The notes under the pieces: generated by a model | Seen by the model: only the letters and a program-made list of their open reading frames with translations | Told to the model about the DNA's origin: nothing | The model's database searches: none | Assembly (NCBI GenBank): GCA_038883795.1 | Contig: JAVZLK010000033.1 | Span: 1-17,656, forward strand | Reading direction: 5' to 3' | Length of the DNA: 17,656 nucleotides | Origin: Candidatus Bathyarchaeia archaeon | Lineage (GTDB): Archaea > Thermoproteota > Bathyarchaeia > Bathyarchaeales > Bathycorpusculaceae | Part shown: in pieces, positions 2,750 to 17,656 of the stretch | How the letters are laid out: every line of letters begins with the position of its first letter | How positions within the stretch are numbered: position 1 is the first letter of the stretch | Position numbers and translations under genes: made by a program

Positions 2750-4030
2750 CTATCCCGAAAACGCGAGAACAACAATTTGTCGGTTGGCTATAGTAACCGT
2801 GTTGCCTGCAAGGTTTGAGAAGAATCTGCCTTTTATAATGTGGAGTCCAGCTGTCACGCGTTCACACCATAATGAAGTGACCGAGTTGGGATAGTTGCTG
2901 CTGTAGGGAGACTGCCATGAGGCGGATGAAGATTTGTCAACTGCATCGATATTTAACAATGTTCCTTTGCCCTCAAAATATTCTGTTGCGCCAGAGTTTC
3001 CAGCAGTATAAACAACTAATAGATCGGAGTCTTTTGATAAGGTGCCAGTTAGAACCGCTTCGATATCATCAACAGGTGTGTCAAGGAGCGTTGAGGTAGA
3101 TATTGAGGATTCCTTAAACCAGAAGGTAACCAGACTTGCCGGGAAGCAAAACACAATCAATTGGCGCTCATCGATTGTCACAGTTTTTCCACTTGCCATT
3201 GAAAAGAACCTTCCTTTAACTGTGTGAGAACCAGGGGCTAAGGAAACAGCATAGACTATGGTAGCCGAGTTAGCCTTGTTGGCGGCGTATGGGGATTGCC
3301 ATTGTCTTGTTGAAATATCTGTTCCATCAATGTTTAGAGTGACACCTTTCGCAGAAGCCTCGGTTGAGCCACGCATGTTTCCTGCGTTATAAATTATGAA
3401 AGCAACAGAATCTTCCGATAGCGTAAACGTAACGGTTGCTTGCGGGTCATCCACGGGCGTAGTGGATTTAGTGCTTACTTGCACAGTCGATCTAACATAG
3501 CCGGCTACAACGTTTGAGAACCAGAAGGCTGCAATCTGCCTTGTATCAACTGTAACACTGTAACCAGGATAATTGGCGAAAAATCTGCCCTTAATAGTGT
3601 GAGGACCAGCAGTTAAGGCGGTTGCATAGGCCACCGTCACTGAATTCGCTTTGTTGTCGCCGTATGGAGATTGCCACGAAAAGGCAACATCTACGCCGTC
3701 TATGTTAATTGCACAGCCTTTACCATCATAGTCCTCCGTTGATCCTGGCTTGTTACCAGCGTTGTAAATTATTAAAATCTGAGAATCCCTTTCGAGGTTG
3801 ATGGCCAGGACAGCTTCGGGGTCATCAACGGGCGTTCCCGAAGTGGTTGAAACGCTCACCTCTGAAGATTTAAACGAGTATCCATACATGAAGTTAACAG
3901 GCGTTATAGTGACTGTTGCAGTATATGACACTAACGAAATTGCAGCTTTGTGAGGAAAGATAAAGAGAAGAATTGTGAGAAATATAGCTAACAATCTAAG
4001 ACTTATTCCACTTTGCTTCCTCTTCAACAA
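2750..4030 (-). CDS. Secreted protein with three tandem ~125-aa beta-rich repeats (putative adhesin or fibre-tip subunit)
   Basis: TTG start after AGGAG; signal peptide; three repeats sharing TPVDD, Y(N/T)AGN, NID, WQSPY, KGRFF and RQ; no C-terminal anchor. Confidence 0.8.
   Translation of the reverse strand: MLKRKQSGISLRLLAIFLTILLFIFPHKAAISLVSYTATVTITPVNFMYGYSFKSSEVSVSTTSGTPVDDPEAVLAINLERDSQILIIYNAGNKPGSTEDYDGKGCAINIDGVDVAFSWQSPYGDNKANSVTVAYATALTAGPHTIKGRFFANYPGYSVTVDTRQIAAFWFSNVVAGYVRSTVQVSTKSTTPVDDPQATVTFTLSEDSVAFIIYNAGNMRGSTEASAKGVTLNIDGTDISTRQWQSPYAANKANSATIVYAVSLAPGSHTVKGRFFSMASGKTVTIDERQLIVFCFPASLVTFWFKESSISTSTLLDTPVDDIEAVLTGTLSKDSDLLVVYTAGNSGATEYFEGKGTLLNIDAVDKSSSASWQSPYSSNYPNSVTSLWCERVTAGLHIIKGRFFSNLAGNTVTIANRQIVVLAFSG
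2753..3877 (-). repeat. Three intragenic tandem domain repeats (~375-380 bp period)
   Basis: TPVDD begins at aa 66, 191 and 318 of the 426-aa ORF; the other conserved motifs recur in register. Confidence 0.9.
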
Positions 4031-4599: not shown

Positions 4600-5193
4600 T
4601 TAGAATGAGTTTTGTGGTAGTGGCGTGTACTTGAATGTTACTGTTATTTGAGTCGTTTCGTCGACCAGATCATAGGAGTACGTTACTTTAACCAGGTAAT
4701 ATCTTGTTGTGGATACGTTTTGATGGATGTAGCCAGCGTCTCCTGGTGTTAATCCATTAATGTAAGTTTTTGTTGTTGAGCCTGTAGGGGCATCGTACAA
4801 TGTTTCGTCAGCCCAAGCTGCACCATTCCAGTATTTTACTGTTATTTGAAACTTTGAGAATTTGCTGCTGTTGATTGCTGATGTTAGCTCGATTTTCACT
4901 GCGCAGACTTGATTTGCGTCTGTCACAACCTTAAAAGCGTATGTGTTTGGATTGTTGGCGTCAAACGTTGGTTCTGCAGCGCCTCCAGGTAAGTACCTCA
5001 CTTTGTCCACATCGTTTACGTAGACAGTCCACGAATCTGATGTAGCTCCTATACTGAATTGGATCGTAGGAGTTATAGTCACCGATGCGGTATATGACAC
5101 TAAAGCTAGTGCAATCATTGTCAAGGAAGCAAGGCAAAGAACGCCTTTTACTCCCAATATTGCTCCAATTTTTCTCAAACTCTTCATTTTCAC
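4600..5193 (-). CDS. Secreted beta-rich protein, putative major fibre/pilin-like subunit
   Basis: AAGGAG(A)GTGA RBS, start GTG 5193 or ATG 5187; basic then hydrophobic signal; Thr/Val/Tyr-rich beta-strand body; no C-terminal anchor; shares LVSYTA-VTITP with the 426-aa protein. The fibre role is inference. Confidence 0.75.
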   Translation of the reverse strand: MKMKSLRKIGAILGVKGVLCLASLTMIALALVSYTASVTITPTIQFSIGATSDSWTVYVNDVDKVRYLPGGAAEPTFDANNPNTYAFKVVTDANQVCAVKIELTSAINSSKFSKFQITVKYWNGAAWADETLYDAPTGSTTKTYINGLTPGDAGYIHQNVSTTRYYLVKVTYSYDLVDETTQITVTFKYTPLPQNSF

Positions 5194-5970: not shown

Positions 5971-6130
5971 AAGTCCCAGAAGCCTAAAACTCAAACAATG
6001 TGATATTTAGGATACAAATTCTAAATGTTTCTATTAATTGCAGTTAATGGAGCATATCGACGTTATACTGTTCATCGCAGAAAAATGTTAAGAGGTTTTG
6101 GTATTTATACGTTTAATGGATGTGATGTGT

Positions 6131-6514
6131 ATGCAAGAAAAAGAAGTAGGCATTTATGAACTCGCAAAGGCTGTAAGAGAAGAAATAATAAAACTTAGGA
6201 AAGATGAGGCCATCAAAAAGGAGCCAATCCTTTATCTTGATTCGCTTGATTTAGAATTAAATGTTGTTATTTCAGAGGTAGCGAAAGGTGGAATTAAGTT
6301 CTATATAGTTTCTGCTGGGGCGGAATATGAAAAAGAGCGAATAAGCAAAATAAAACTTAGTTTTAAACCTATCTTGAGTCAAGAGGAGTTAGAGGCGCTC
6401 AGAAAATCTGGAGGAACTTTTCTTATGGTTAAAACACAGGGCATCAGATTAGCTCCAGAACAACCATTAAGGAGAAAGAAACGCCATATTCTCAATAAAA
6501 CTAAAACTGAATAA
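6131..6514 (+). CDS. Trypco2 (trypsin-co-occurring domain 2)-like protein
   Basis: GIYELAKAVREEI...LDLELNVV...GGIKFYIVSAG...KIKLSFKP fits the recalled Trypco2 pattern (helix, ELEL-V, GG-KFWVV--G, K-KL-L-P). ATG 6131 after GTGATG preferred over TTG 6098. Confidence 0.7.
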   Translation: MQEKEVGIYELAKAVREEIIKLRKDEAIKKEPILYLDSLDLELNVVISEVAKGGIKFYIVSAGAEYEKERISKIKLSFKPILSQEELEALRKSGGTFLMVKTQGIRLAPEQPLRRKKRHILNKTKTE

Positions 6515-6579: not shown

Positions 6580-7887
6580 TTATTGTTTTTTGATTAGGAT
6601 TTTTTGTGAAGGCAGTACGGTAACGAACTGCCATCCTTGTGCCAAGTATTTCTCAAGCTCCTTTTCGTGGATTATCCTTTGTGGGTTATGTTTTCCCTCT
6701 CTAAGCTTTTTCAGCTCCTTCTCGTAAAGCTCCAATTCTTCATCCTTGTTTAGTTCTCTTCCAATCAGCCTTTCCTCTGCAACCTTAACGTCGAGCAAGT
6801 CTATTCCTAGAAGGCTTTTAGCCATGCTTTTCAAGGCTTCAATTTTTGCTTCCTTAATTATGCTCGATTGTTCAAGTGGTTGGGTTGCCGTGCTTAGGAA
6901 GGGCTCGCACTCTTTGTAGGCTTTACGCATGTCCTCAATCATGTCTGGTGGTAGTACGCCTTTGTTTGTGCTATAGCGGGCTTCAATGTCGCCCTTATGT
7001 CCCATAATAAACTGCAGGTATGGGTGGCTGATTTTACCTTTAGACTCGGCTATGATCATGTTTGTATCGCAGTAAGCCCTCAAAACATAAGGCCTCCACT
7101 TGAAGCCGGCCCTCAAAATGGCTTCGCGAATATCCCTCGTCACTAAGGTTGTCCTCAAAAACCTGTTCTTTTTAACCCCTCTAGGATCAAATCCCAACAA
7201 TGGAGAATCCTTACTCAATTCTTCGCCTTGTTTAACTCGCTCCTCCAAATACTCTTGGATGTAGGTTATTGTTTGCTGCGGAACGAATGTGAAGTACTGA
7301 TGCCTAGCCTTGCTGAGGCTTTTCCTTACCACGAGCATTGATGGAATTTTTGCGAATTCTACATCGTCTGGGCGGATTTCAGCCTCAACAAAGTCTCCAA
7401 GCTTGAGGCCGTCGCTTCCATCATAATTGCCTATGCTTTCAGGCCTTAAACCGCTGAAAGCCATAAGGGCTATTGAAACTCTTCCTCTTGGCGTTGCCAT
7501 CCTGAGGATTCTGTCCAGCTCTTCTTTGTTTGGCACACGCTCATCGGCTATCCTTGGCGTGTCAGATTCGCCTCTAATGTTAACCTTAAGCTTGACGTTG
7601 ATGCCATTGTAGGAAAGCCAGCTGTTAAGAACTTTCTTAAACCTGGACAGGTAGGAGCCAGCCTTACCTTCCCTTTCCATTTTCCGGATAAAGTCTGTGA
7701 AGCCGTCCCTGAAAGCCTTGGTTTTGGCGGCTTTAAGAATCGCCTTTGGATCAGTCTTGTTAAGCTCGCAATAAAAACCCAGAGTCCTAAGATACACCGT
7801 AGCGGTCACAATGGATTTAGCGGCCAAATTTTCAAACCAGCGCTTAACATCCGGGTCCTTAAGCAGATGCGCGTACTTAGCCCTCAT
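6580..7887 (-). CDS. Tyrosine recombinase/integrase associated with tRNA-Ile
   Basis: SGLR (Arg), LSKARHQY (Lys), PYVLR (YxxR), MGHKG (His), EARY (Tyr); intact 435 aa; starts 59 nt from the tRNA-Ile 3' end. Confidence 0.93.
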   Translation of the reverse strand: MRAKYAHLLKDPDVKRWFENLAAKSIVTATVYLRTLGFYCELNKTDPKAILKAAKTKAFRDGFTDFIRKMEREGKAGSYLSRFKKVLNSWLSYNGINVKLKVNIRGESDTPRIADERVPNKEELDRILRMATPRGRVSIALMAFSGLRPESIGNYDGSDGLKLGDFVEAEIRPDDVEFAKIPSMLVVRKSLSKARHQYFTFVPQQTITYIQEYLEERVKQGEELSKDSPLLGFDPRGVKKNRFLRTTLVTRDIREAILRAGFKWRPYVLRAYCDTNMIIAESKGKISHPYLQFIMGHKGDIEARYSTNKGVLPPDMIEDMRKAYKECEPFLSTATQPLEQSSIIKEAKIEALKSMAKSLLGIDLLDVKVAEERLIGRELNKDEELELYEKELKKLREGKHNPQRIIHEKELEKYLAQGWQFVTVLPSQKILIKKQ

Positions 7888-7946
7888 ATCCCATCAATTA
7901 GAAGGGAAGATGTTGCAATATTTAAGGATTCACTTAAAAATTTAAG
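7888..7946 (-). promoter_or_regulatory. Integrase-1 promoter and leader
   Basis: The - strand reads AATCC-TTAAATA, 31 nt upstream of the ATG, with TTGATGG three nt before the ATG; same layout as the integrase-2 leader. Confidence 0.55.
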
Positions 7947-8021
7947 TGGGCCGGGCCGGATTTGAACCGGCGACCTTTCGGTTATCAGCCGAACGCTCCA
8001 ACCAAGCTGAGCTACCGGCCC
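7947..8021 (-). tRNA. tRNA-Ile: tRNA-Ile (anticodon GAT), intronless, CCA not encoded
   Basis: GGGCCGG acceptor stem, TAGCTCAG D-arm start, TTCGG-CTGATAA-CCGAA anticodon arm, GCCGG-TTCAAAT-CCGGC T arm, discriminator A. Confidence 0.97.
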
Positions 8022-8053
8022 ACCCACAACACTAAACAGTAAAACAAACAACA

Positions 8054-8080
8054 TTTTTAAGGTTTTCAGAACCCTTTTAT
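8054..8080. promoter_or_regulatory. Back-to-back BRE/TATA promoters of the two tRNA genes
   Basis: - strand GAAAACC-TTAAAAA (TATA 8060-8054); + strand GAACCC-TTTTAT (TATA 8075-8080); each about 31-32 nt from its mature tRNA 5' end. Confidence 0.65.
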
Positions 8081-8111
8081 CCCTTCAAAAGCATTATCTT
8101 CGCAAGGAAAG

Positions 8112-8190
8112 GGGCCCGTGGCCCAGTATGGATTAAGGCGCCGGCCTTCGGAGCCGGAGAACGTGGGTTCAAATCCCACCGGGCCCGCCA
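8112..8190 (+). tRNA. tRNA-Arg: tRNA-Arg (anticodon TCG), intronless, encoded CCA
   Basis: GGGCCCG/CGGGCCC acceptor stem, CCGGC-CTTCGGA-GCCGG anticodon arm, GTGGG-TTCAAAT-CCCAC T arm, G discriminator then CCA. Confidence 0.97.
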
Positions 8191-8247
8191 CCTTTTGGGT
8201 TCGGAACCTTTATATGAGACAACGCGCCTAACATTATTTGATGGTCT
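8191..8247 (+). promoter_or_regulatory. Integrase-2 promoter and leader
   Basis: GAACC-TTTATAT 32 nt upstream of the ATG; TTGATGG three nt before the ATG. Confidence 0.6.
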
Positions 8248-9528
8248 ATGGCGAAAGCCACCTACGCCTATCTGCTTAAGGACGCGGACGTTAAGCGTTG
8301 GTATGAGAATGTGGCGAGGGGTTCAAAGGTTACTGCAGATGTTTATCTGCGCAGACTTGGGTGGGTATGCAAGCACTTGAGCCTAAAGCCTAAAGAACTC
8401 CTCGGGAAGAGTGAGAAAGAGCTTGGGATGCTTCTCGCAGACTTAGTCTCTTATTTGGAGCGTGAAGGCAAGGCTGGAAGCTACATTAAATCGTGTTTGA
8501 AAGCTGTTAAATCTTGGCTTTCCTTCAACATGGTTGAGGTTAAGGTTAAAATTAAGATTAAGGATGCGGATGACACGCCGACTCTCCGTGATGAGCGTGT
8601 CCCAAATCAGCAGGAGCTTAGGAAAATTTTCCTCTGCGGAGACTTAAGGGCTAGAAGCGCATGTGTATTGCTTGCTCATAGCGGACTGAGAATTGAAACC
8701 TTAGGCAACTATGACGGAACAGACGGACTAAGGATTAAAGACTTACCAGAAATGAAGATAGAAAAGGGCGAAGTAGTTTTCGAAAAAGTGCCTACAATGG
8801 TTGTTGTGCGCAAGGAACTGAGTAAAGCTGGGCACCAGTACTTCACTTTTCTAGGCGAAGAGGGATGCGAATATTTGAAAGATTATTTGGAAAGCCGATT
8901 GAAAGAAGGTGAGAAGCTAACGCCAGACTCGCCAGTACTGACGCCTAAGGTTGCGCCTAAGCCCTTCATAAGATCAACAAACATTGGCGACATGATAAGG
9001 GCTGCCATAAGAAAGGCTGGTTTCAAGTGGAGGCCATACGTTTTACGGGCTTACTTTGACACGCAGCTGATGCTGGCAGAGTCTAAAGGCTTAGTGCTAC
9101 GCGATTATAGGCAGTTTTGGATGGGACATAAAGGCGACATAGAAAACCGCTACACAACAAACAAGTGCAAGCTTCCAGAAAACGTCATAGAAGACATGAG
9201 AGAAGCCTACAAAAGAAGCCAAGAATACCTTCATACGACTAAGATTGGAAAAACAAGCGAAGAAGAACTGCGACAAGCCTTTAGGAAGCAACTTCTCTTA
9301 GTTGCTGGGTTTACACAAAACGAAATTGATAAAATGGACATATCAGCAATCAGCGACGAAGAACTACAAACAATAATACGGAAGAGACTTCTGGGAGAAA
9401 AGACAAACGATTGCGTACAGAAAGTAGTGTCGACCGACGAAGTTGAAAACTACTTGGAGCAAGGATGGGAGTATGTAGCAGCTTTGCCAAACGGCAAAGT
9501 AATAGTCAAACTTAAAAGCTCACAATAG
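8248..9528 (+). CDS. Tyrosine recombinase/integrase associated with tRNA-Arg
   Basis: SGLR, LSKAGHQY, PYVLR, MGHKG and ENRY motifs; intact 426 aa; clear paralog of 6580..7887. Confidence 0.93.
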   Translation: MAKATYAYLLKDADVKRWYENVARGSKVTADVYLRRLGWVCKHLSLKPKELLGKSEKELGMLLADLVSYLEREGKAGSYIKSCLKAVKSWLSFNMVEVKVKIKIKDADDTPTLRDERVPNQQELRKIFLCGDLRARSACVLLAHSGLRIETLGNYDGTDGLRIKDLPEMKIEKGEVVFEKVPTMVVVRKELSKAGHQYFTFLGEEGCEYLKDYLESRLKEGEKLTPDSPVLTPKVAPKPFIRSTNIGDMIRAAIRKAGFKWRPYVLRAYFDTQLMLAESKGLVLRDYRQFWMGHKGDIENRYTTNKCKLPENVIEDMREAYKRSQEYLHTTKIGKTSEEELRQAFRKQLLLVAGFTQNEIDKMDISAISDEELQTIIRKRLLGEKTNDCVQKVVSTDEVENYLEQGWEYVAALPNGKVIVKLKSSQ

Positions 9529-9609
9529 TGGCATGCTGCAATGTTAGTTATTTTAAGAGTTTTAAAAACGGATTTATCTACTGCTAAAATCGCTGTTCCG
9601 CCGGGATAG

Positions 9610-12600
9610 TCACTGTGGCTTTTTTGTCTTCTTGGTTGTTTTGCGTTTGATTGTTGTGAAGACTATTGTTAGGATCGTTGCTAAGGTTATGTAGGGTATG
9701 ATTGGTTCTGTCTTTTTGGGAATTTGTATTGGAATTGAGTAGCCTCCGACTGGTACCGTTGTGACTGCTATGCGGGCAGCGTCTGATTGGGCTGTGTTGC
9801 CCTTATCGTCTGTCACTTTTAGTTGCACATAGTATATGCCTGCTGTTGTCGGCGTGAAAGCCCATGAGGCCGATGTTGCCCCAGAAACTGGAGCCCCATT
9901 CAAGAACCATTGGTAGCTGTAGGGTGGGTAGCCTCCTGAAACTGTTGAAGTGAATGTTACGGATTGTCCGACGATTATTGATGTTGATGTTGGAGAGATT
10001 GATGCTGTGAGTTGTGGAGCAACCACTATTGTGGCTGTTTCTGATGTAGCTACGTTTCCTGCATTATCGGTCACCCTTAAATAAACTACATATGTTCCAA
10101 TTGTTGATGGCGCAAAAGTCCAAGCGTTTGATGTAGCCCCAGAAACCGCACTACCATTCAAATACCACTGATAATTATATGGAGTAATTCCACCTGAAAC
10201 TGTTGATGTTAATGTTACCGATTGATCTACAAGTATTAATGCTGAAAGCGGGTTTATTGAAACCAAAAGTTGTGATGGTGCGAGTATAACCTCTAACGAT
10301 ATGTGTATGACGTGGGTTAATGAACCGCTCTTTCCTTCTACATAAAATTCATATGTTCCAGGTGGCATGAGAGGGCCAACATAAAATGTCAAAATTGAGG
10401 AAACTGAGCCGTCAGGTGGCGGCGTAACTTGTTCTGGATCTAATGTTCCTCCAATACCAGTTCCTGGAGGACCAATAATATGCGACAAACTCAATTGAAC
10501 TGGCTGGCTAAATCCGTTTATCGAGGTTATTGTAATTATCAATGACTTTGAACCACCTTGAGGAATGGTCAATGAAGTTGAAACAGGTGACAATGTGAAG
10601 TCTTGAGGTTGTCCATAAACATAAGTGCCTATGATTTGGATGGTATGGGTGCTGTGGGTGTATGTAAAGTATAGAAAGTTATGTGTCTCATTTGCTGTAA
10701 TTGTTAGAGTTGCAGGCGCACCATCTATTAGCAAAGTGAAAGGACCATCCAAAAGTTGCTTTGGAATAGTCACGTTGCAAAATCCAATAGCTTTATCAGG
10801 TCCCGTTACGTTGAAACCAATCTCTTTTTCTGTCTGTACAAAATTGAAGTCAGAAACTGATGAATTGCTCTGAATTGTTACGCAAAAGACTTGTCCATCA
10901 ATTAGTATCTCATAAATCATTGTTTCGGCAATCTGATAGGATCTCGTTTCAGGTTCAAGCTCATAGTCTTTAATTCCATCACCGTTTTCGTCAATCTGCA
11001 ATATATATTCAGCTGTATTTGGATTAAGCTCAAATTGTGCCAGCGTATTGAGTATTACATCAAATGTAATCCCTGAAAAAGTTAACGCTTTTTCCGAAAG
11101 AGGAGTTATGTTTGTTATGGTGCAATTTCCTTCATCATATGCAGTTACATTAATAGTGTAGATCAAGTCTGCCGGAAGATAAACTGTTATTGTATGCGTT
11201 ACATTACAATATTCCATACTTGCCCCTGGGATTTCGCTCACGGTATTAGATAGTATCCTGCCATATTGATCTGTTATTGTAACATTCACGGGGCTTCCAA
11301 AGACGAGAATTCTTTTAGCGCTTATCCATAATGAGTCCAGTAAATCTGAAACTATCTTAGCAATAACATCAGTTGTATAAGGAGCTGGAGTATCAATGTA
11401 AAGCTTTTGTATATTATAAGTAGGCGAATAAATAACATTGTTTTTTAGGTCAAATGTATAGACAATTGACATGCCGGGATAGTTGTTGTCGTAGACTACA
11501 ATATTCTTAATGTCTTCAGAGACACTGTAGGCACCATAAACTGTTACCGCATGACGCCCTCCATCTTTAAATACCAATAACATCATACATGGTTTACTAT
11601 TGCCGAGATTCTCAACCAATTTATCATACTCACGTTTCAAGTCAAAACCAAAGATTGCATCTCTTAAATCCTGTATCATAAATTTCAGGATAAAATATAA
11701 CTGTTCTACTTGATATGAAGCTATATTAGGAGCTGCCTCATCTTTCAGAATATCAAAAGTTAGTTTAGAAACAGGCTTATCTATTGTTCCAGTATAGTAT
11801 AGAATAGACGTTGCTGCCATTCCGTAGCAGTGTCCTGAGGAGGAAACCAATGGATATGACAGCGCAAGTAATGCTGATGCAATAGGGCCTGTCACAAGAT
11901 TGTCTAATAGAATTTTGAGTTGACGCTTTATATCCAATAACTCACTGGTCGAAAGGCCCCAATTGCTAAAAGAGTACCCATCCACATATGTTTCAAAATC
12001 ATATGATTTTAATACATTGACTCCAGAAATATATGCAAAATTGTTTAAAGTGTTGGAATCTGATTTAATTATAACTACTACCTGGAGCCCCTCACCCTTT
12101 ACATTTAGTATTCTTGAGGCGTTCCATGTAACTTTAACGTTGGACTCTGCTCCAGGGGCAATTGGAGGAACTATCTGCAATGACTTTATTGTATATTCGC
12201 CTGCAATGGGGTTAGAAAAACTTGACGTTTGAAAGAAGAAAACGGTCCCTTCTTCCGATACAATGCTTCCAAGGTTTTTTAGTTTCAAGGTAATAGTAGT
12301 TGGTTGACCCTCTATTGGATTTGAATTTGAAATTTCAATGTTTGTGATTGCAATATCAGGAGCTGCACCTGAGAATATGGCTACCAGATAGTGAGGAGTG
12401 TTCATAGCTACAGTGTAAGATGTAGATGCTCCAACATTGATTGAATCTAATTCCCAATGATTGAAAACGTATCCTGTGTTTGGGGTTTCTGTTACCGTTA
12501 CGCTTGTACCTTTATTGTACCAGTATGCGCCTGGTGCCGGATTTGTTGTTCCTGCTCCTGATGGCGATACTCCTATTGTTAATTGGTATTGAGTTGTCCA

Positions 12601-13821
12601 TTCAACAGTGTACGTTGCACTTCCCGTAACTGTGATTGACCTGGGATCTGCGGTGCTCCCGTCGCTCCACTTATTAAATATAAGCCTTGTCCCAGCGCTT
12701 GGTTGATAACCCGAATCTGGATCTAAAATGTGAACCGAATCTTTAGACCAGGTATAGCTGGTTGACGACGTTATGGGCGAACCATCAACATAAACTCTTC
12801 CTCCATTAGGATTAACGGTCACAGTGTACTGGGGCGCAGTAAGAGAAACATACTTTGTCTGAGTGGTCGTTAAGCCATCGCTTTGATAGGCAGTTGCGGT
12901 AACAGTGTAGCCACCATAGCTGCTATAAGTGTGTGATGCTGGAAACCAAGAATCCCCAGAACTTCCATCACCCCAATTCCAGTTTATCCTTGTTATAGTA
13001 GTCCCAGGAGTCCCAGGCGTAACTACACCATTAAATGTTACAGTACGATCACTAATCGAAGGATCATACAAGGTCAAGCTTGGCGGAATATGATACATAA
13101 ATACAGCCTTCAAGGTGCCTGAACCATCAACACTCGCAACGGTCGATTGGATGTCTTCGTACCAAGGGTTAACAGCTCCGGTTGATTCCCAGTGATGAAA
13201 CGAATATCCTGATGGAGGATTAGCACTAATCGTGTGGATTCTCGTAGTTGTTGAGATGGTGGCTGGTAAACTATATGTTATTCCACTCCAAACAATTGTA
13301 CCGACATTCGAAGCTCCAGTATTCAAAACATAACTTGACAACTGAACGAATACCGAGCTAACCATGTTAACCCATCCAATCCTGGTCTCGCTGTCATATT
13401 GAGGATTCCAATCAGTGTCCCAAATGGCAAAAATAACATTGTAACTCCCAGTAGGGACGCCGGTGGGAACGTAGAAATATCTGTTCGCCCAAGAATCGCC
13501 TGGGGATATTGAAACCGTTCTGTCATTGGAGGGGTCACTGTATATGGAACCCCCGATTTGGATACTTGCTCCCAAAATAACATTGATTGAAGTAGGATTG
13601 GGATTATACAAGCGGTACCATAATCTCATATGCCCACCAGGCGTTTGAGTAATAGGCGGCGTAATAGGAACCGAATACTCTTCATAGGAAATTCCAACAT
13701 CAATGATGTAAGGATTCGAAAAAGCCATAACTTTCGGAGTATAAAATGACACAGTAGAACCAATCAACATAAACAATAGTAAAACTACAATTGTTTTCCT
13801 CAATTTTCCCTTCCCCTCCAT
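9610..13821 (-). CDS. Large cell-surface protein: PKD, InlB-B-like and CARDB Ig domains, papain-like Cys-His-Asp domain, PVGG-type C-terminal anchor
   Basis: Signal peptide; PKD motif WNWGDG...SHTYSSYGGYTV; B-repeat-like GYSFHHW and GYVFNHW; CARDB-like PDIAITNI...LKNLG; GHCYGM...HAV...VYDNNYP; two terminal PKD-like repeats; VPVGGYS + TM + KRKTTKK. Confidence 0.88.
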   Translation of the reverse strand: MEGKGKLRKTIVVLLLFMLIGSTVSFYTPKVMAFSNPYIIDVGISYEEYSVPITPPITQTPGGHMRLWYRLYNPNPTSINVILGASIQIGGSIYSDPSNDRTVSISPGDSWANRYFYVPTGVPTGSYNVIFAIWDTDWNPQYDSETRIGWVNMVSSVFVQLSSYVLNTGASNVGTIVWSGITYSLPATISTTTRIHTISANPPSGYSFHHWESTGAVNPWYEDIQSTVASVDGSGTLKAVFMYHIPPSLTLYDPSISDRTVTFNGVVTPGTPGTTITRINWNWGDGSSGDSWFPASHTYSSYGGYTVTATAYQSDGLTTTQTKYVSLTAPQYTVTVNPNGGRVYVDGSPITSSTSYTWSKDSVHILDPDSGYQPSAGTRLIFNKWSDGSTADPRSITVTGSATYTVEWTTQYQLTIGVSPSGAGTTNPAPGAYWYNKGTSVTVTETPNTGYVFNHWELDSINVGASTSYTVAMNTPHYLVAIFSGAAPDIAITNIEISNSNPIEGQPTTITLKLKNLGSIVSEEGTVFFFQTSSFSNPIAGEYTIKSLQIVPPIAPGAESNVKVTWNASRILNVKGEGLQVVVIIKSDSNTLNNFAYISGVNVLKSYDFETYVDGYSFSNWGLSTSELLDIKRQLKILLDNLVTGPIASALLALSYPLVSSSGHCYGMAATSILYYTGTIDKPVSKLTFDILKDEAAPNIASYQVEQLYFILKFMIQDLRDAIFGFDLKREYDKLVENLGNSKPCMMLLVFKDGGRHAVTVYGAYSVSEDIKNIVVYDNNYPGMSIVYTFDLKNNVIYSPTYNIQKLYIDTPAPYTTDVIAKIVSDLLDSLWISAKRILVFGSPVNVTITDQYGRILSNTVSEIPGASMEYCNVTHTITVYLPADLIYTINVTAYDEGNCTITNITPLSEKALTFSGITFDVILNTLAQFELNPNTAEYILQIDENGDGIKDYELEPETRSYQIAETMIYEILIDGQVFCVTIQSNSSVSDFNFVQTEKEIGFNVTGPDKAIGFCNVTIPKQLLDGPFTLLIDGAPATLTITANETHNFLYFTYTHSTHTIQIIGTYVYGQPQDFTLSPVSTSLTIPQGGSKSLIITITSINGFSQPVQLSLSHIIGPPGTGIGGTLDPEQVTPPPDGSVSSILTFYVGPLMPPGTYEFYVEGKSGSLTHVIHISLEVILAPSQLLVSINPLSALILVDQSVTLTSTVSGGITPYNYQWYLNGSAVSGATSNAWTFAPSTIGTYVVYLRVTDNAGNVATSETATIVVAPQLTASISPTSTSIIVGQSVTFTSTVSGGYPPYSYQWFLNGAPVSGATSASWAFTPTTAGIYYVQLKVTDDKGNTAQSDAARIAVTTVPVGGYSIPIQIPKKTEPIIPYITLATILTIVFTTIKRKTTKKTKKPQ
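9763..10269 (-). repeat. Tandem duplicated PKD-like domains (10021-10269 and 9763-10011)
   Basis: QSVT(L/F)TSTVSGG-(T/P)PY-YQW-LNG--VSGATS...L-VTD--GN-A-S occurs twice with a 258-nt period. Confidence 0.85.
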
Positions 13822-14037
13822 CCGCTCGGAACTTGAGAGAATTAGGATTGTTTTTATCGAATATTACTCTTAAATTTTATGGAGAAATCTTCTATTAAGA
13901 ACTGTCTGCATCGTTTTCAGTTTGTGTGTGCATTTAAATTTTATGAAAACTACGTCTACTATGCTTTTGATAGTTCCTGTCTACTGCTTTTATATGGATA
14001 CATGAAACAATTTCACAATCCCATCGAGACCACTTTT

Positions 14038-14745
14038 CTATACTTCCAAATTTTTTAAAGAAATAACGTTCGTATCCTCAGGAAACATAGAAAGGTCAAT
14101 CATCGGCAAAGATGTGATTATAGCTTGCATTTGGAGGTTTTTCATTTCTTTGCAAATTTCTGGGACCATGCGTTTGGGTATTCTGTCAAAAAAGTTGTCT
14201 CCGATAAGGCATCTATAACCTTTTGCGGCATCAAACGGATTTTCCTTATTTACCACAATGTTGATTGAATCTTTGTCTAGAACCAGTTTGAGTGTTATTT
14301 TTCCATTTACTGTTTTGGAAAAGGAGTATTTGTGGCGGATGCCAAACGCCAATAGAATGGCTCTTACAATGGTTGATTTTCCAGAACCGCACGGTCCATA
14401 AATGACGTTTATTGCGTCTTTTTTGAATTTTGCCTCAAACTCTTTAAACGGCCCAACGTTCTCAAGTCTTAACGATTCAATCTGGAATGGCAGAAGATGA
14501 ACTTCGCAGTAACGTGCATCTTCTCGTCCAGCCTCTGCAAGGATTATTTGAAGATAGTCACGGGCTGTCTTAGGAATAGTTACCTTTAAGGCTTCTTTAA
14601 TGGCTTCTTCGATAAGCTTTGAAATATTAAGGTTATCCTTCTTTGCCTTCTCAACTAAATCGCTGTCAAGATACAATAAAGTTTTCTTCTTGATGAGAAC
14701 TAAATGCACATGACCAAATAGAAAAATCTTGCCTACAACCCGCAT
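14038..14745 (-). CDS. Fusion of an RHH/CcdA-like DNA-binding domain and a compact SMC/RecN-type ABC ATPase-like domain
   Basis: KKKTLLYLDSDLVEKAKKDNLNISKLIEEAI (CcdA-like); IESLRLENVGPF...INVIYGPCGSGKST (Walker A); degenerate Walker B CLIGDNFFDRI and QAIITS. True start may be GTG 14709. Confidence 0.75.
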   Translation of the reverse strand: MRVVGKIFLFGHVHLVLIKKKTLLYLDSDLVEKAKKDNLNISKLIEEAIKEALKVTIPKTARDYLQIILAEAGREDARYCEVHLLPFQIESLRLENVGPFKEFEAKFKKDAINVIYGPCGSGKSTIVRAILLAFGIRHKYSFSKTVNGKITLKLVLDKDSINIVVNKENPFDAAKGYRCLIGDNFFDRIPKRMVPEICKEMKNLQMQAIITSLPMIDLSMFPEDTNVISLKNLEV

Positions 14746-14764
14746 TTAGCCTACTTTATGCTAT

Positions 14765-14940
14765 TTAGATAATGCCTTGATCTTTTAATTGCGAGAAGTA
14801 CTAGGCTCTTAAAGCATGGCAGCAGTTTCCAAAGCCTCTTGAGCTAATCGTTATCAAGCCGCTTTTAAATCCTTTAGGCATAAAACAAGTAGCGCCAGCG
14901 TAATCGCAACCCATTCTGCTTCTGCCGAAGATAGGTAGAT
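14765..14940 (-). pseudogene. Possible decayed PIN-domain (DUF3368/VapC-like) gene fragment
   Basis: The - strand reads YLSSAEAEWVAITLA..LCLKDLKAA**RLA, then with frameshifts LVLLAIK/DQGII; resembles the recalled L--GEAEAIALA...DD--AR--A...LL-A---G-I pattern. Confidence 0.3.
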
Positions 14941-15014
14941 TCAGGGGAATTGGAGGGCATCAAATTTTAGTAAAACTATAAATTGGAATATTTAATTTAA
15001 AATTGTGAACAAAT

Positions 15015-15377
15015 ATGGAAAACATAAGACAAGGTAAGGGTGACGCTACCGATATAATCTATTTGTTGAACCTTTTAAGAATATCACTCAAACCACTCAT
15101 TCCCAATGTGAGAGATCCCTTCTCAAGACAATTACATGCTGTTAGAACGTCTGGCATAGAGTCTTGTAAAGCACTGTTATCAAGTATTGATGAAGCGATG
15201 CGCAATCTTGACTTTTCATCTATCAACAGGGAATTGTTCGAAGACTTCATGGAGGGTCGAGATTTGATAAAAGAACTGATGTATAATTTGGAGAGAGCCG
15301 CGGAAGCTATCAAAAATTTAATTGAAACTTATGATAAACTTGATTATTGGACTAACAAAAGTCATGGCAGAGTCTAA
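15015..15377 (+). CDS. Hypothetical alpha-helical protein
   Basis: 120-aa ATG-started ORF after an AT-rich upstream region; amphipathic helical pattern; no recognised motif. Confidence 0.6.
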   Translation: MENIRQGKGDATDIIYLLNLLRISLKPLIPNVRDPFSRQLHAVRTSGIESCKALLSSIDEAMRNLDFSSINRELFEDFMEGRDLIKELMYNLERAAEAIKNLIETYDKLDYWTNKSHGRV

Positions 15378-15419
15378 GGAACTGATTGGAGTTATAGAAA
15401 GCAAATAGAGCTTCAATGT

Positions 15420-15878
15420 TTACCTAAATGGAAAGTTTCTCGTTATTGAGCATACTCCGAGGTCTATAGGTGAGATTCTATTTACTTCTATTTTCCCCGT
15501 TTTAAGAAGCGATTTGTCCAGATAGTCAATAACTCCAGTTCCTTTCTCAGACGTAAGCCACTTATCAGAGGAGGAAACCATCCATAATCTAGCTTTTTCA
15601 AATTTCTGCGAGTACTCTTCCGCTCGTTTCGCGATTCTTCTAGCTTTTTTACTAACCTTAGCGTCCAGCTCAACCTCTATGTATTCAACAACCCTTGTTG
15701 TAGTATTTCTAAAGACCAAGTCAGGTCCTTGCCCACCTCCGTAGTTTGGTCCATCAATTATTTGGAAAATAGGCGAAGATGTAATGTAGTCTAAAATTAT
15801 CTGAATGCATCTGTCATGGTCAGTGTATGTTTTATTTTCTCCTTTTTTTAACAATTTGAGAAATGTTTCCTTATCCAT
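15420..15878 (-). CDS. Small PD-(D/E)xK-fold nuclease-like protein
   Basis: Strong GAGGTGAT RBS; helix with His (DHDRC), then GPDLVF and YIEVE, an E-x-E variant of the restriction-endonuclease fold. Confidence 0.7.
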   Translation of the reverse strand: MDKETFLKLLKKGENKTYTDHDRCIQIILDYITSSPIFQIIDGPNYGGGQGPDLVFRNTTTRVVEYIEVELDAKVSKKARRIAKRAEEYSQKFEKARLWMVSSSDKWLTSEKGTGVIDYLDKSLLKTGKIEVNRISPIDLGVCSITRNFPFR

Positions 15879-16051
15879 TATCTATCACCTCGGCTAAACG
15901 TGCCCTTTCTAATATTAGTTGAATGTGATAATGTATGTGAATGTGAACTTAAACATAAATGTAGTAATGTATAATTTATAAAAGTCATAGCATCCCAGAA
16001 CCATAGCCAATGCATCTCAAAACCCCAAACTTAAATTTTACGCCATATTTC

Positions 16052-16124
16052 GGCTGACTTTCAGCTCGGATAGACGTTGCAAGCGCCAGCGAGCCTTTCG
16101 GCAGAGCGCGAGCGAAAGTCAGCC
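16052..16124. other. GC-rich branched stem-loop (candidate ncRNA or structured DNA site)
   Basis: GGCTGACTTTC-A-GCTCG (16052-16068) pairs with CGAGC-GAAAGTCAGCC (16109-16124); two small inner hairpins. Confidence 0.6.
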
Positions 16125-16279
16125 TCATTTTTTGAGACCTCATTTCTGCGAAAACAATGATCATGAAGCCCTCACTTTGGGAGCCTTCATAAACCTACTT
16201 TACAGAAGAGCAAAAGAAAATGTAAAAGCCATTACCATGTCTTTTAGGAGAGAAGCATGGATAGAATAATCCGCCTTTT

Positions 16280-16479
16280 CTAGGCTTCCTTCTCCAGCCG
16301 CTCCAGCGTTTCCATAAACTTCTCATGGAACCCTTCATCTTAACAAAATATTCTGGCTTTCCAGTTTCATCAAAATTTGTGGCTGCAGACAAGCACTCGT
16401 CAATGAGTTGCCTAAGCTTAATTCTATATTCCTCAGTCAACCTTGCAACTACGCTTTTCGCTTTTTCCAAAATATCCAT
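16280..16479 (-). pseudogene. Small helical protein gene with probable single-base frameshift
   Basis: MDILEKAK...FVKMKGSM continues in a shifted frame as (E)KFMETLERLEKEA* (TAG at 16282-16280); the unshifted tail to 16195 is Trp/Arg-rich and unnatural. Confidence 0.5.
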
Positions 16480-17071: not shown

Positions 17072-17656
17072 TCAAGTTCGTTCCATCCAATCGCTGTTCA
17101 TTACGTAGTACATGTCTGTTTGTGTGAATATTAGGTTGAAGATTATGTTGGCGAGGGTTTCTGGACTTGCTGAGTTCCAGAGCCTTTGCCAAATTATTGT
17201 TCCGAGGCGTGGGTCTCTGGGAAAGTATATGAGGAAAACGTTTTTGGACCAATTAAATAGGAAGTCATCTCTCTGCTTGTCCGGCCGCTTAAAAAACTTA
17301 AACGTCTTAATAAGAAACGGCAAGTTAAGACCAAGATCTGAATACTCATTATCCAAATCCAAAATTATTTCATCCATATCCTGCCAACTCGCCTTACGAA
17401 CATTCATCTTCAAATCCCACCAAGATTTACTGAACAAAAACACCCAAAGCCGCTTATACGTATTCTCAAACCAGAAAACCTCCACCTCACATGGACGACT
17501 CAAACACATCTCCCTCTGATACCTTCCAAAAATAAATACCGATTTCCCCTTCAACTCAACCTCCCGCCTATAAGCCTCAACAAACTCACGCACATACTGA
17601 CCCATGCCCATCCACGTAAAATCTTCCTTAACCAAACCAACAACACCCTCCAACAA
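17072..17656 (-). CDS. Hypothetical protein, probably the 3' part of a gene starting beyond the window
   Basis: Open for 194 codons from the window edge to TGA at 17074-17072; no recognised motif. Confidence 0.6.
   Translation of the reverse strand: MLEGVVGLVKEDFTWMGMGQYVREFVEAYRREVELKGKSVFIFGRYQREMCLSRPCEVEVFWFENTYKRLWVFLFSKSWWDLKMNVRKASWQDMDEIILDLDNEYSDLGLNLPFLIKTFKFFKRPDKQRDDFLFNWSKNVFLIYFPRDPRLGTIIWQRLWNSASPETLANIIFNLIFTQTDMYYVMNSDWMERT

Follow-up and report, generated by a model that had tools for sequence, protein, structure and literature searches.

How did two tRNA genes that diverge from each other come to have an outward-facing integrase gene behind each of them, and do the two halves of such a locus act on each other? 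The question is raised by a 17,656-nt contig of a hot-spring Candidatus Bathyarchaeia archaeon (JAVZLK010000033.1, assembly GCA_038883795.1), which as a whole is referred to here as the window. Judged from sequence comparison, it is quite probable that two different integrative elements were inserted independently, one at each tRNA 3' end of the divergent pair. The insertion event is of an ordinary kind, which happened twice at one spot.

The divergent tRNA pair and its two integrases

According to the initial annotation, tRNA-Ile and tRNA-Arg diverge 90 nt apart, each followed by an outward integrase, and ARAGORN, Rfam and the ORF coordinates agree with this (Table 1). The integrase start codon follows the discriminator base at 59 nt for tRNA-Ile and at 60 nt for tRNA-Arg. 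Also the T-loop GGTTCAAATCC common to both tRNAs and the 3' acceptor strands CCGGCCC (Ile) and CGGGCCC (Arg) were found as described there. In relatives from other genomes the tRNA-to-integrase spacing is mostly 54-67 nt, and because the same spacing recurs in them the arrangement is not due to chance. The divergent tRNA pair is present in every relative examined, with neither, one or both sides occupied, and the spacer can be aligned with those of G147, G101, L114, G136, C10 and C18 (working labels for the relatives compared). Going by such alignments, the divergent pair is the ancestral arrangement, with a conserved chromosomal core of about 245 bp (7947-8190), and the junctions are mirror images because the two target tRNA genes diverge. 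The spacer block AACCTTAAAAAT may have a promoter role.

Both integrase ORFs have zero internal stops, and the proteins can be aligned from end to end with 45% identity (BLASTP 2e-127), including the long common blocks already quoted in the initial annotation. Both show the motif R..K..YxxR..H..Y, which is of the pNOB8-type. R148, K193, R267, H294, and Y302 (Int2 numbering) are invariant in an alignment of 23 homologues, and Y occupies the His-I position in at least 90% of it (YVLR in both Int1 and Int2). With Pfam PF00589, Int2 reaches 23.2 bits, below the gathering cutoff of 27.1, and Int1 gives no match at E≤1; protein-database homologues are likewise without a precomputed Pfam domain. The scores are below the cutoff because the family is too divergent for the model, while fold and motifs still give the superfamily. 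With an AlphaFold (AF2) model of Int2 (mean pLDDT 83.4), Foldseek returned 36 PDB matches at E≤0.001, all of them tyrosine recombinases or repressor relatives, with archaeal XerA (4a8e, 5hxy; E 1e-7), IntI, lambda Int, and Cre at the top, and a search of a viral structure library with the integrase model returned integrases. As modeled, the proteins belong to the tyrosine recombinase superfamily, with predicted core-binding helical and catalytic domains. The best NCBIfam match is the XerA model NF040815, for which the scores are 40.8 and 39.6 bits and the cutoff is 220. Furthermore, both proteins have an extra C-terminal region of ~100 aa ending in a conserved GW beta-domain, for which a PDB sequence search and an ESM Atlas feature search (best score 0.83) gave nothing usable.

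Table 1. Positions of the features in the window, from left to right
Feature	Position	Strand	Evidence or content
Left arm, putative proximal part of the Int1-type element, running off the contig start	1-6579		
Int1, intact 435-aa tyrosine integrase, Ile/Val-targeting clade	6580-7887	-	R148, K193, Y267xxR270, H297, Y305
Int1 leader, putative P' arm of attP	7888-7946	-	17-nt repeat arm TTAAGTGAATCCTTAAA at 7921-7937; TATA-like TTAAATAT
tRNA-Ile(GAT)	7946-8021	-	ARAGORN; Rfam RF00005 7947-8021, 71.8 bits
Int1-type att core CGGCCCGGCCCA	7947-7958	-	T-stem end, acceptor 3' strand, and discriminator of tRNA-Ile
Spacer between the divergent tRNA genes, chromosomal, 90 nt	8022-8111		Conserved block AACCTTAAAAAT
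tRNA-Arg(TCG)	8112-8190	+	ARAGORN; Rfam RF00005 8112-8187, 64.4 bits
Int2-type att region TGGGTTCAAATCCCACCGGGCCCGC, the 3' 25 nt of tRNA-Arg	8164-8188	+	Repeats in C10, G008
Int2 leader, putative P' arm of attP	8188-8247	+	CCACCTTTTGGGTTCGGAACC then TATA-like TTTATATG; conserved in C10, G008, G042
Int2, intact 426-aa tyrosine integrase, Arg-TCG clade	8248-9528	+	R148, K193, Y264xxR267, H294, Y302
Right arm, proximal 8.1 kb of the Int2-type element, running off the contig end	9529-17656		Pfam, collinearity with G008

Attachment sites and mobility of the two element types

The attP of each element would be a short mimic of a tRNA 3' end, situated between inverted-repeat arms that probably bind the integrase. 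Recombination of attP with the tRNA gene would rebuild a complete tRNA and leave a P' arm of 57-60 nt, with the integrase promoter, and the outward integrase gene directly 3' of the tRNA, so that the 59/60-nt spacing would represent the P' arm of attP as a constant of the family. The Int1 clade uses tRNAs ending in ...CCGGCCCA (Ile, Val), and the Int2 clade tRNA-Arg(TCG).

For the Int2-type, the 25-nt att recurs with one mismatch at a distance of 41,447 bp in C10 (repeats at 481-505 and 41928-41952) and of 40,187 bp in G008, a genome of two contigs. Compared with the empty site C18, C10 has a 41.4-kb insertion, both flanks being common to the two at 84-88%. Since the sequence after the tRNA-Arg acceptor stem is GCATCC in the empty C18, but GCCA in all five copies adjoining an integrase, the encoded CCA (8188-8190) comes from the element side of the junction; GCCA is also found after tRNA-Arg in L050, with a leader remnant and no integrase. 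The Int2 leader, which presumably functions as the P' arm, forms a partial inverted repeat with the distal P arm (CGAACCC/GGGTTCG). The right arm corresponds in gene order to the 40.2-kb G008 element over its first ~10 kb (collinear), and some modules of the arm are also found in the 41.4-kb element of C10. Among its genes are those for a 1403-aa PKD/Ig surface protein and an ATPase (ribbon-helix-helix N-terminus, AAA_23), besides small unknown ORFs. The C10 integrase has 97% identity with Int2, and integrases from two other genera have 95% and 92%. The integrase gene of G008 has an in-frame TAG. Since the Int2 relatives carry ~40 kb of anti-virus defence genes and integrases 92-95% identical occur across genera, the family is a plausible vehicle of defence-gene exchange among hot-spring archaea.

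For the Int1-type, the same 12-nt core CGGCCCGGCCCA is present at the distal junction in G000:C46 (9916-9927), where it stands between a P arm and a flank that matches the G147 empty site at 98.9% identity, and the Int1 P' arm forms a perfect 17-nt inverted repeat with this P arm. G101 has a 10-nt version of the core at its distal junction, and there a ~6.1-kb insertion separates tRNA-Ile from a flank gene that is directly 3' of the tRNA in G147 and G053. A search for 25-nt repeats within 5-20 kb downstream of Int1-like genes in G101:C4, G102, G103, G136, and G005 gave none; the true Int1 repeat is only 10-12 nt long. The Int1 leader, for which promoter and binding-site roles can be assumed, is conserved 3' of the tRNA in about 23 of 29 listed loci (read by eye). 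The left arm encodes a DnaJ-type zinc-finger membrane protein, an S8 subtilase, a winged-helix regulator, and a Trypco2-domain protein according to Pfam, as well as secreted repeat proteins. It has no similarity to the native tRNA-Ile flank that is conserved in 10 other genomes, and because this flank is absent there, the arm is, on this sole basis, assigned to the element; compared with the other Int1-bearing loci it has nothing in common except one wHTH match. An integrase 96% identical to Int1 adjoins tRNA-Ile in another genus (G136, contig of 240 kb), and an Int1-type junction is present in five of 91 tRNA-Ile(GAT) copies (86 genomes with entries among 151 family genomes scanned).

The direct repeats of the tRNA 3' ends that the initial annotation had suggested to look for, together with empty sites, are therefore found in relatives of both types (C10 and G008 versus C18 for Int2; G101 and C46 versus G147 for Int1), but not in the window. 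The window contains no second copy of the Int2-type 25-nt att, and TGGGCCGG occurs in it only in tRNA-Ile itself. With up to four mismatches in 25 nt, neither tRNA 3' end has a second copy in the window, nor a linked one in the other 80 contigs. A match of 13 nt (TTCAAATCCCACC, 17408-17420) was considered as distal att, but it is inside an ORF with no native flank after it and was taken as chance. C46 may or may not be linked to the window: the sequences do not overlap, and identity to G147 is 94% for the tRNA region of the window and 99% for the C46 flank. Mobility, as read from these sequences, is evident in the relatives and not within the window itself, whose own two elements are presumably complete and still mobile, with the far ends of both beyond the contig.

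The tRNA-Ile of the window is a GCCGG/CCGGC T-stem variant, which is natural in many family genomes without an integrase. Among 23 copies whose 3' end is exactly GCCGGTTCAAATCCGGCCCGGCCCA, five have the Int1 leader, and among 31 GAGAG copies none has it. In a first sample, all three occupied copies had GCCGG/CCGGC and all five empty ones GAGAG/CTCTC. A chimeric tRNA-Ile, with the element replacing the T arm, was dropped, since the GCCGG variant was common without the Int1 leader in the 151-genome scan.

Alternative readings of the double junction

The integrases might be intact on stranded remnants, with one or both elements immobile or without a distal att and slowly decaying, which is conceivable but rather unlikely. 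No distal att is visible for the elements of the window, and decayed copies are frequent in the family: integrase fragments (residues 1-97, 1-145, 1-269 etc.) occur beside tRNAs, in G101 Int1 is frameshifted and tRNA-Arg retains no more than a leader remnant, and G005 has a leader without integrase. However, neither ORF of the window is truncated or lacks a catalytic residue, and the contig ends before a 40-kb element could finish.

It is still less likely that an assembly chimera, a possibility the initial annotation had itself raised, joined Int1-at-Ile and Int2-at-Arg populations via the tRNA sequence, no cell having both. Single occupancy is common (Int1 only in G136 and L114; Int2-type only in C10, G008, G042, and G071), the genome bin contains three versions of the tRNA pair, and the double junction is absent from the JGI metagenome contigs scanned, with no match to the strict pattern and two to a relaxed one (one with Int1 only, one empty). 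In addition, all four runs show high copy numbers for the tRNA and integrase bins, and in run X2 the exact-match unitig depth is 16.6 for the left arm versus 6.4-8.3 at 9526-13861, and 67.6 at 14485-16361. With arms of such unequal depth, the two may not always share one molecule; yet depth differences are also expected from mosaic elements common to several strains. Moreover, tRNA-Ile, the spacer and the 5' half of tRNA-Arg form a host-like backbone of a single lineage type, with G147 and L114 as its nearest relatives, which speaks against a join, and an exact repeat common with Int2-bearing loci would comprise only ~46 nt of the tRNA-Arg 3' half, less than the presumable final k of a usual assembly. 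The only other double case, G101/G128, is decayed, but has remnants on both sides in an independent assembly. Both arms are presumably on one molecule, their co-linearity resting on one short-read contig; the unitigs (Logan) are too short for circles, empty sites, or long-range linkage. Where unitigs end loosely at the tRNA borders, this is due to other organisms with the same tRNAs.

The initial annotation had further proposed that the inverted att-like sites are cross-recognised, so that the central 200 bp (7960-8180) would invert, hybrid tRNAs would arise, or the elements would mobilise each other. The sites are indeed inverted, have the 11-nt T-loop block in common and agree at 19 of 25 positions, the integrases are paralogues, and integrase-driven inversions are known in Thermococcales (PMC8371274). 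Nevertheless, the proposal found no support and is highly improbable. The acceptor-strand cores deduced from attL/attR differ (CCGGCCCA versus CGGGCCCG), the inverted repeats of the attP arms are unrelated between both types, and the integrase clades are target-specific. Tyrosine recombinases such as lambda Int, Cre, and XerCD need identical overlap regions. An inversion would also put mismatches into the acceptor stems as well as the T stems, and none of the relatives examined departs from the divergent order. Among the unitigs placed on the window there is no inverted form, which is a weak test with such short unitigs.

That the genes are domesticated host recombinases fixed beside tRNA genes, as both are intact and the window has no visible att repeat, is the least probable reading and already refuted by the empty sites. 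The patchy occurrence (a homologue at E≤1e-20 in 17 of 101 family genomes, the Int1 junction in few tRNA-Ile copies) and the low XerA scores also speak against it. The refuting condition set in the initial annotation, both integrases fixed at this locus across relatives, does not apply.

The integrase family and known systems

Occupation of both tRNA genes by one integrase family, as initially suggested, agrees with the phylogeny, since the clades of the integrase tree track the target tRNA (Ile/Val clade, support 99/99; Ala clade; Arg-TCG clade, 100/99). Genes of this archaeal family are nearly always found some 55-65 nt 3' of a tRNA gene; of 46 loci scanned, at least 29 have a same-strand tRNA just 5' of the integrase match. 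The family comprises at least 2840 proteins at E≤1e-10 among 8000 candidates scored, and integrases 92-96% identical were found in other genera.

In the available parts of the sources, pNOB8-type integrases (She et al., 2002, 2004, as cited in PMC8371274 and PMC3293823) have the consensus R..YxxR..Y (PMC8371274), target tRNA 3' ends with flanking direct repeats, and are encoded by a gene that remains unsplit by integration and adjoins the rebuilt tRNA on the same strand (PMC3293823). The window has the same motif and target and unsplit integrase genes on the strand of the adjoining rebuilt tRNA, with att outside both intact ORFs. This differs from the SSV-type (class I), in which attP is inside the integrase gene and integration splits it into N and C parts. 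The assignment to the pNOB8-type (class II) is thus by motif and gene arrangement rather than by kinship to the pNOB8 integrase sequence; the review delimits integrase families at 30% identity over 60% of the protein (PMC8371274). In contrast to the att identity of 40-50 bp and the Sulfolobales hosts described there, att identity here is 9-25 nt, the hosts are Bathyarchaeia and other hot-spring archaea, and the C-terminal region with the GW beta-domain is additional. By description, the integrated elements of Thaumarchaeota (Krupovic et al., 2019, PMC6563490) are also similar, as they are mostly found at tRNA 3' ends, have short att (median 17 bp), occur several per genome, and carry cryptic or defence-related cargo; a case with both members of a divergent tRNA pair occupied was not found in the accessible part of that paper. 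The Thermococcales inversions (pTN3 integrase, TKV2/TKV3; Cossu, 2017; PMC8371274) likewise involve paralogous integrated elements in opposite orientation, but, as far as described there, their integrases are of the SSV-type and split on integration, or require no less than 104 bp of identical sequence as substrate. In the window, by comparison, no inverted match near the tRNAs is longer than 53 nt (85% identity), and no inversion was seen. XerA (4a8e, 5hxy), although the best structural match, is a chromosomal, single-copy dif resolvase of ~270-280 aa that is not tRNA-linked, whereas the genes here are patchy, tRNA-linked, and far under the NF040815 cutoff.

In bacterial tRNA-targeted islands the element supplies a replacement tRNA 3' end, and Williams reportedly distinguished sublocation classes of such islands in 2002, with integrase subfamilies tracking tRNA sublocation and sequence. 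The present case differs from them in being archaeal, in the integrase family, and in a crossover apparently at the extreme 3' end. No paper on this integrase family in Bathyarchaeia was found in the literature searched, though supplementary tables of the 2019 and 2021 papers may list relatives; a paper on Bathyarchaeia viruses mentions integrases, in its available part, for two viruses only (PMC10848311).

We tentatively consider an undescribed, Pfam-invisible pNOB8-type clade, in which the C-terminal GW domain might read 12-17-nt inverted repeats ~36 nt apart around a 9-12-nt acceptor-strand mimic, changes of the mimic alone might shift it between Ile/Val, Ala, Arg, and Gly tRNAs, and the elements might move between phyla (Bathyarchaeia, Nitrososphaeria, Odinarchaeia) with 40-kb defence islands; this is possible, though doubtful. 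Apart from this, the locus shows cleanly how tRNA genes serve archaeal mobile elements as landing pads, and it yields usable att definitions for a very large family of integrases missed by standard domain models. For genome curation it is relevant that such short contigs are mostly mobile DNA on a 245-bp chromosomal core and are easily mis-binned.

The tRNA pair and its integrases

The source bin, of which the window is the entire contig C33, comprises 81 contigs and 2.18 Mb (87% complete, 3.4% contaminated). The divergent tRNA-Ile and tRNA-Arg genes 90 nt apart, each followed after 59 and 60 nt by an outward-facing integrase, were confirmed by ARAGORN, Rfam and the open reading frames, and the protein motifs, T-loops and acceptor strands that the initial annotation had given all match as well. 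The two integrases, Int1 beside tRNA-Ile and Int2 beside tRNA-Arg, are 45% identical end to end.

tRNA and integrase genes of the window
Feature	Coordinates	Strand	Basis
tRNA-Ile(GAT)	7947-8021	minus	ARAGORN and Rfam
tRNA-Arg(TCG)	8112-8187, encoded CCA to 8190	plus	ARAGORN and Rfam
Int1	6580-7887	minus	Uninterrupted ORF, 435 aa; start 59 nt past the Ile discriminator
Int2	8248-9528	plus	ORF, 426 aa; start 60 nt past the Arg discriminator

With the Pfam profile Phage_integrase, Int2 scores 23.2 bits, under the cutoff of 27.1, and Int1 gives no match, while the NCBIfam profile XerA yields about 40 bits for the integrases against a cutoff of 220. For Int2, AlphaFold modelling from an alignment of 23 sequences gave a structure with a mean pLDDT of 83.4; its top matches in the PDB are archaeal XerA, IntI, lambda Int and Cre, and the leading matches in a viral library are viral integrases. 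R148, K193, R267, H294 and Y302 are unchanged throughout the alignment, and a tyrosine occupies the position of the first histidine (YVLR). Judged from the alignment, the motif containing it is the consensus R..YxxR..Y that PMC8371274, a review on tyrosine recombinases of archaea, gives for pNOB8-type integrases. C-terminal to the catalytic tyrosine, alignment and model show about 100 further residues, which close with a small beta-domain bearing an invariant GW. This domain (Int2 residues 385-426, window 9400-9525, and likewise in Int1) is preceded by a variable helical linker and is present in 23/23 homologues; searches of the PDB and the ESM Atlas led to no family or fold assignment for it. 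Among 8000 candidates scored, at least 2840 proteins belong to the family at E<=1e-10. Members carry no precomputed Pfam domain and, where named, the NCBI label "site-specific integrase", and the records of relatives are hot-spring MAGs of Bathyarchaeia and Nitrososphaeria.

Two types of integrated element

Comparison of related loci indicates that Int2-type elements are mobile. Two further contigs of the source bin contain the tRNA pair, which is without integrase in C18; in C10 an orthologue of Int2 (97% identical at the protein level) adjoins tRNA-Arg. The tRNA-Arg-side flank of C18 (18329-18828) is found again at C10 15-505 with 88% identity, and the tRNA-Ile side is directly in common (84%). 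Copies of the 3' 25 nt of tRNA-Arg at C10 41928-41952 and 481-505 (one T-loop mismatch) enclose 41,447 bp; in G008, which belongs to another genus and is assembled in 2 contigs, both 25-nt copies are present 40,187 bp apart, and the integrase is 95% identical to Int2 but has an in-frame TAG. Next to an integrase, the tRNA-Arg copies read ...GCCA and then a CCTTTTGGGTTCGGAACC-like sequence in 5/5 cases, as also at locus L050 (leader remnant only), and the empty C18 site reads ...GCATCC. Since the right arm of the window is collinear with the initial ~10 kb of the G008 element and has modules in common with C10, it is the proximal part of an Int2-type element, whose far junction lies beyond the contig end and would be expected to contain TGGGTT(T)AAATCCCACCGGGCCCGC, some 40 kb further right. 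The 13 nt at window 17408-17420 (TTCAAATCCCACC) are identical to part of the T-loop region of tRNA-Arg, but they lie within an ORF and are not followed by native flank; the match is probably due to chance and was rejected as distal att. The C10 island (506-41925, L109-L111, 41.4 kb) is a defence island: it encodes two BrxC/D-like ATPases, each near a TGT-family (possibly DpdA-like) gene, HerA, a DNA methylase, UvrD with a PD-(D/E)XK nuclease, two serine recombinases, AbiJ and a CAP12/Pycsar-type TIR protein, and capsid genes were not recognised in it. In another genome, a sequence similar to the Int2-type leader, CTCCCTTTTGGGTTCGGG, comes after tRNA-Ile(GAT) (G095:C15 10712-10785), and an Int2-clade relative may use tRNA-Ile as well.

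The Int1-type elements likewise appear to be mobile. Close relatives of Int1 (79-96% identical) lie downstream of tRNA-Ile(GAT), all three tRNA-Val and all three tRNA-Ala genes, and a conserved leader, CTTAA(A/T)TTTTTAAG(T/C)GAATCC, was read by eye in 23 of the 29 loci listed. In at least 29 of 46 integrase loci ARAGORN found a neighbouring tRNA on the same strand as the integrase; in 13 it found none, its bacterial mode overlooking intron-bearing tRNAs, e.g. at L036. G136 carries an Int1 relative (96%) next to tRNA-Ile, on a contig of 240 kb, and its tRNA-Arg side is empty. In G101, ~6.1 kb separates tRNA-Ile from the gene that comes immediately after it in the empty G147 and G053, and the distal junction is GGCCGGCCCA followed by native flank. 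Contig C46 of the source bin terminates in ...TTTAAGGATTCACTTAATTTTTTAATTGCATA-CGGCCCGGCCCA-TTTTCAGCG... (9873-9927, L126), which are P arm (the distal counterpart of the leader), 12-nt core and flank, the last matching G147's empty site at 98.9% identity. From these two junctions it follows that the Int1-type direct repeat is only 10-12 nt long and lies at the extreme tRNA 3' end. The direct repeats of tRNA 3' ends that the initial annotation had proposed to search for are present in relatives, with 25 nt in C10 and G008 and 10-12 nt in G101 and C46. Between the C46 P arm and the window leader there is a perfect inverted repeat of 17 nt, TTTAAGGATTCACTTAA / TTAAGTGAATCCTTAAA, and the Int2-type arms have another, weaker repeat, CGAACCC / GGGTTCG; the GW domain is a candidate binder of the repeats TTAAGTGAATCCTTAAA (Int1) and GGGTTCGGAACC (Int2). 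The window itself contains neither the distal Int1 junction, TGGGCCGG being found solely in the tRNA, nor a native tRNA-Ile flank. No link from C46 to the window was found; C46 is one candidate for the far end of the left element. The C46 element end also codes for a ParB-like protein and an 821-aa beta-helix protein.

Within the window, two secreted proteins (2750-4030 and 4600-5193, minus strand) have the N-terminal signature LVSYTA(T/S)VTITP in common; the larger contains the domain three times, and both adjoin an S8 subtilase. Just within the Int1 junction a Trypco2-domain protein (PF19631, 3.7e-8; 6098-6514) adjoins a winged-helix regulator, and the two may form a small conflict module. 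Int1-like integrase fragments also adjoin tRNA genes of long contigs whose labels name other phyla or classes (L051, L060, L074, L081). At L051, on a 1.05-Mb contig of an Odinarchaeota MAG, identity is 89% over residues 1-269 and an Int1-type leader follows tRNA-Ala(CGC), which suggests either spread across phyla or mislabelled bins.

Phylogeny and target choice

A maximum-likelihood tree was calculated from 28 integrases, leaving out a duplicate record (L014 = L035) and two in-frame-stop loci. Int1 and the Ile- and Val-linked proteins form a clade of 8 (support 99/99) with three Ala-linked integrases as sister group, and Int2 groups with the remaining Arg-TCG proteins in a clade of 3 members (100/99), so that the integrases group according to their target tRNA. 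Together with the att repeats and the empty sites, the tree upholds the initial proposal that one integrase family has occupied both tRNA 3' ends. Domesticated genes, fixed at this locus without att repeats, are contradicted by the empty sites of C18, G147 and L113, by the att repeats of relatives and by the distribution of Int2 homologues (E<=1e-20), which occur in 17/101 sampled family genomes and in 8/58 high-quality ones. The integrase identity of 92-96% between genera points to recent transfer.

A first small sample had suggested that the Int1 element replaces the T arm of tRNA-Ile, which was ruled out by a scan of 151 family genomes, 86 of which contain the 91 copies of tRNA-Ile(GAT). 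Their T stem has two forms, GAGAG/CTCTC and GCCGG/CCGGC, differing in four compensated pairs, and the latter is a natural variant found in many genomes without leader. Among the 91 copies, Int1-type junctions were observed at the GCCGG/CCGGC form only: five copies have the Int1-type leader, none of them among the 31 GAGAG-type copies. All five share with tRNA-Val an exact 3' end, which 23 copies possess. This distribution fits a sequence-based target choice and not T-arm replacement.

Origin of the mirror image

The divergent Arg/Ile pair has the same orientation where neither side is occupied (C18, G147, L113), where one is (C10, G008, G042, G071, G136, L114) and where both are. Since orientation is independent of occupancy, the mirror symmetry can be attributed to two insertions of an ordinary kind, one into each of the diverging genes. 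The spacing of 59/60 nt is the P' arm of the integrase family, the leader between tRNA 3' end and integrase start, and a TATA-like box in it precedes each integrase gene as putative promoter. The data also allow a chimeric assembly join of the two arms, as exact-match unitig depth in sequencing run X2 is 16.6 for the left arm, 6.4-8.3 for 9526-13861 and 67.6 for 14485-16361, and a search of JGI metagenome contigs did not find the double junction. However, the unequal depths fit mosaic modules common to several strains, tRNA-Ile, spacer and the tRNA-Arg 5' half are all of a single lineage type, and G101 and G128 have a decayed Int1 and an Int2-type leader remnant at the same tRNA pair. Inversion of the centre or mutual mobilisation through cross-recognised sites, as also proposed initially, is highly improbable: heterology in the overlap region blocks exchange by tyrosine recombinases, and the stretch common to attL and attR, in the acceptor 3' strand, differs between the types, which disfavours cross-type exchange; the 25-nt att sites agree at only 19/25 positions, the arm repeats are unlike, after a swap both stems would be mispaired in two tRNAs that are probably essential, and no inverted form was seen in the short unitigs that were the sole read data.

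The system works in the manner of pNOB8-type (class II) integrases, which insert at tRNA 3' ends (PMC8371274, PMC3293823), and of the integrated elements of Thaumarchaeota, as described in PMC6563490, which also have short att sites. A literature search, supplementary tables aside, found no description of this integrase clade in Bathyarchaeia. The observation holds and is tidy, and this kind of system is already known.

The bin contains three versions of the divergent pair (C33, C10 and C18), which are 82-91% identical over common stretches, and it is therefore a composite of related populations at this locus. C33 and C46 resemble the G147 lineage, which is another genus in the grouping of the tool, and these small element-rich contigs are probably mis-binned or derived from co-binned relatives. 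Next to the tRNA-Arg flank, tRNA-Ala(CGC) is intron-less in C10 (57-132), and the C18 copy (~18366-18461) has an insertion of ~20 nt within the anticodon region, which by its position would be intron presence/absence between sister loci.
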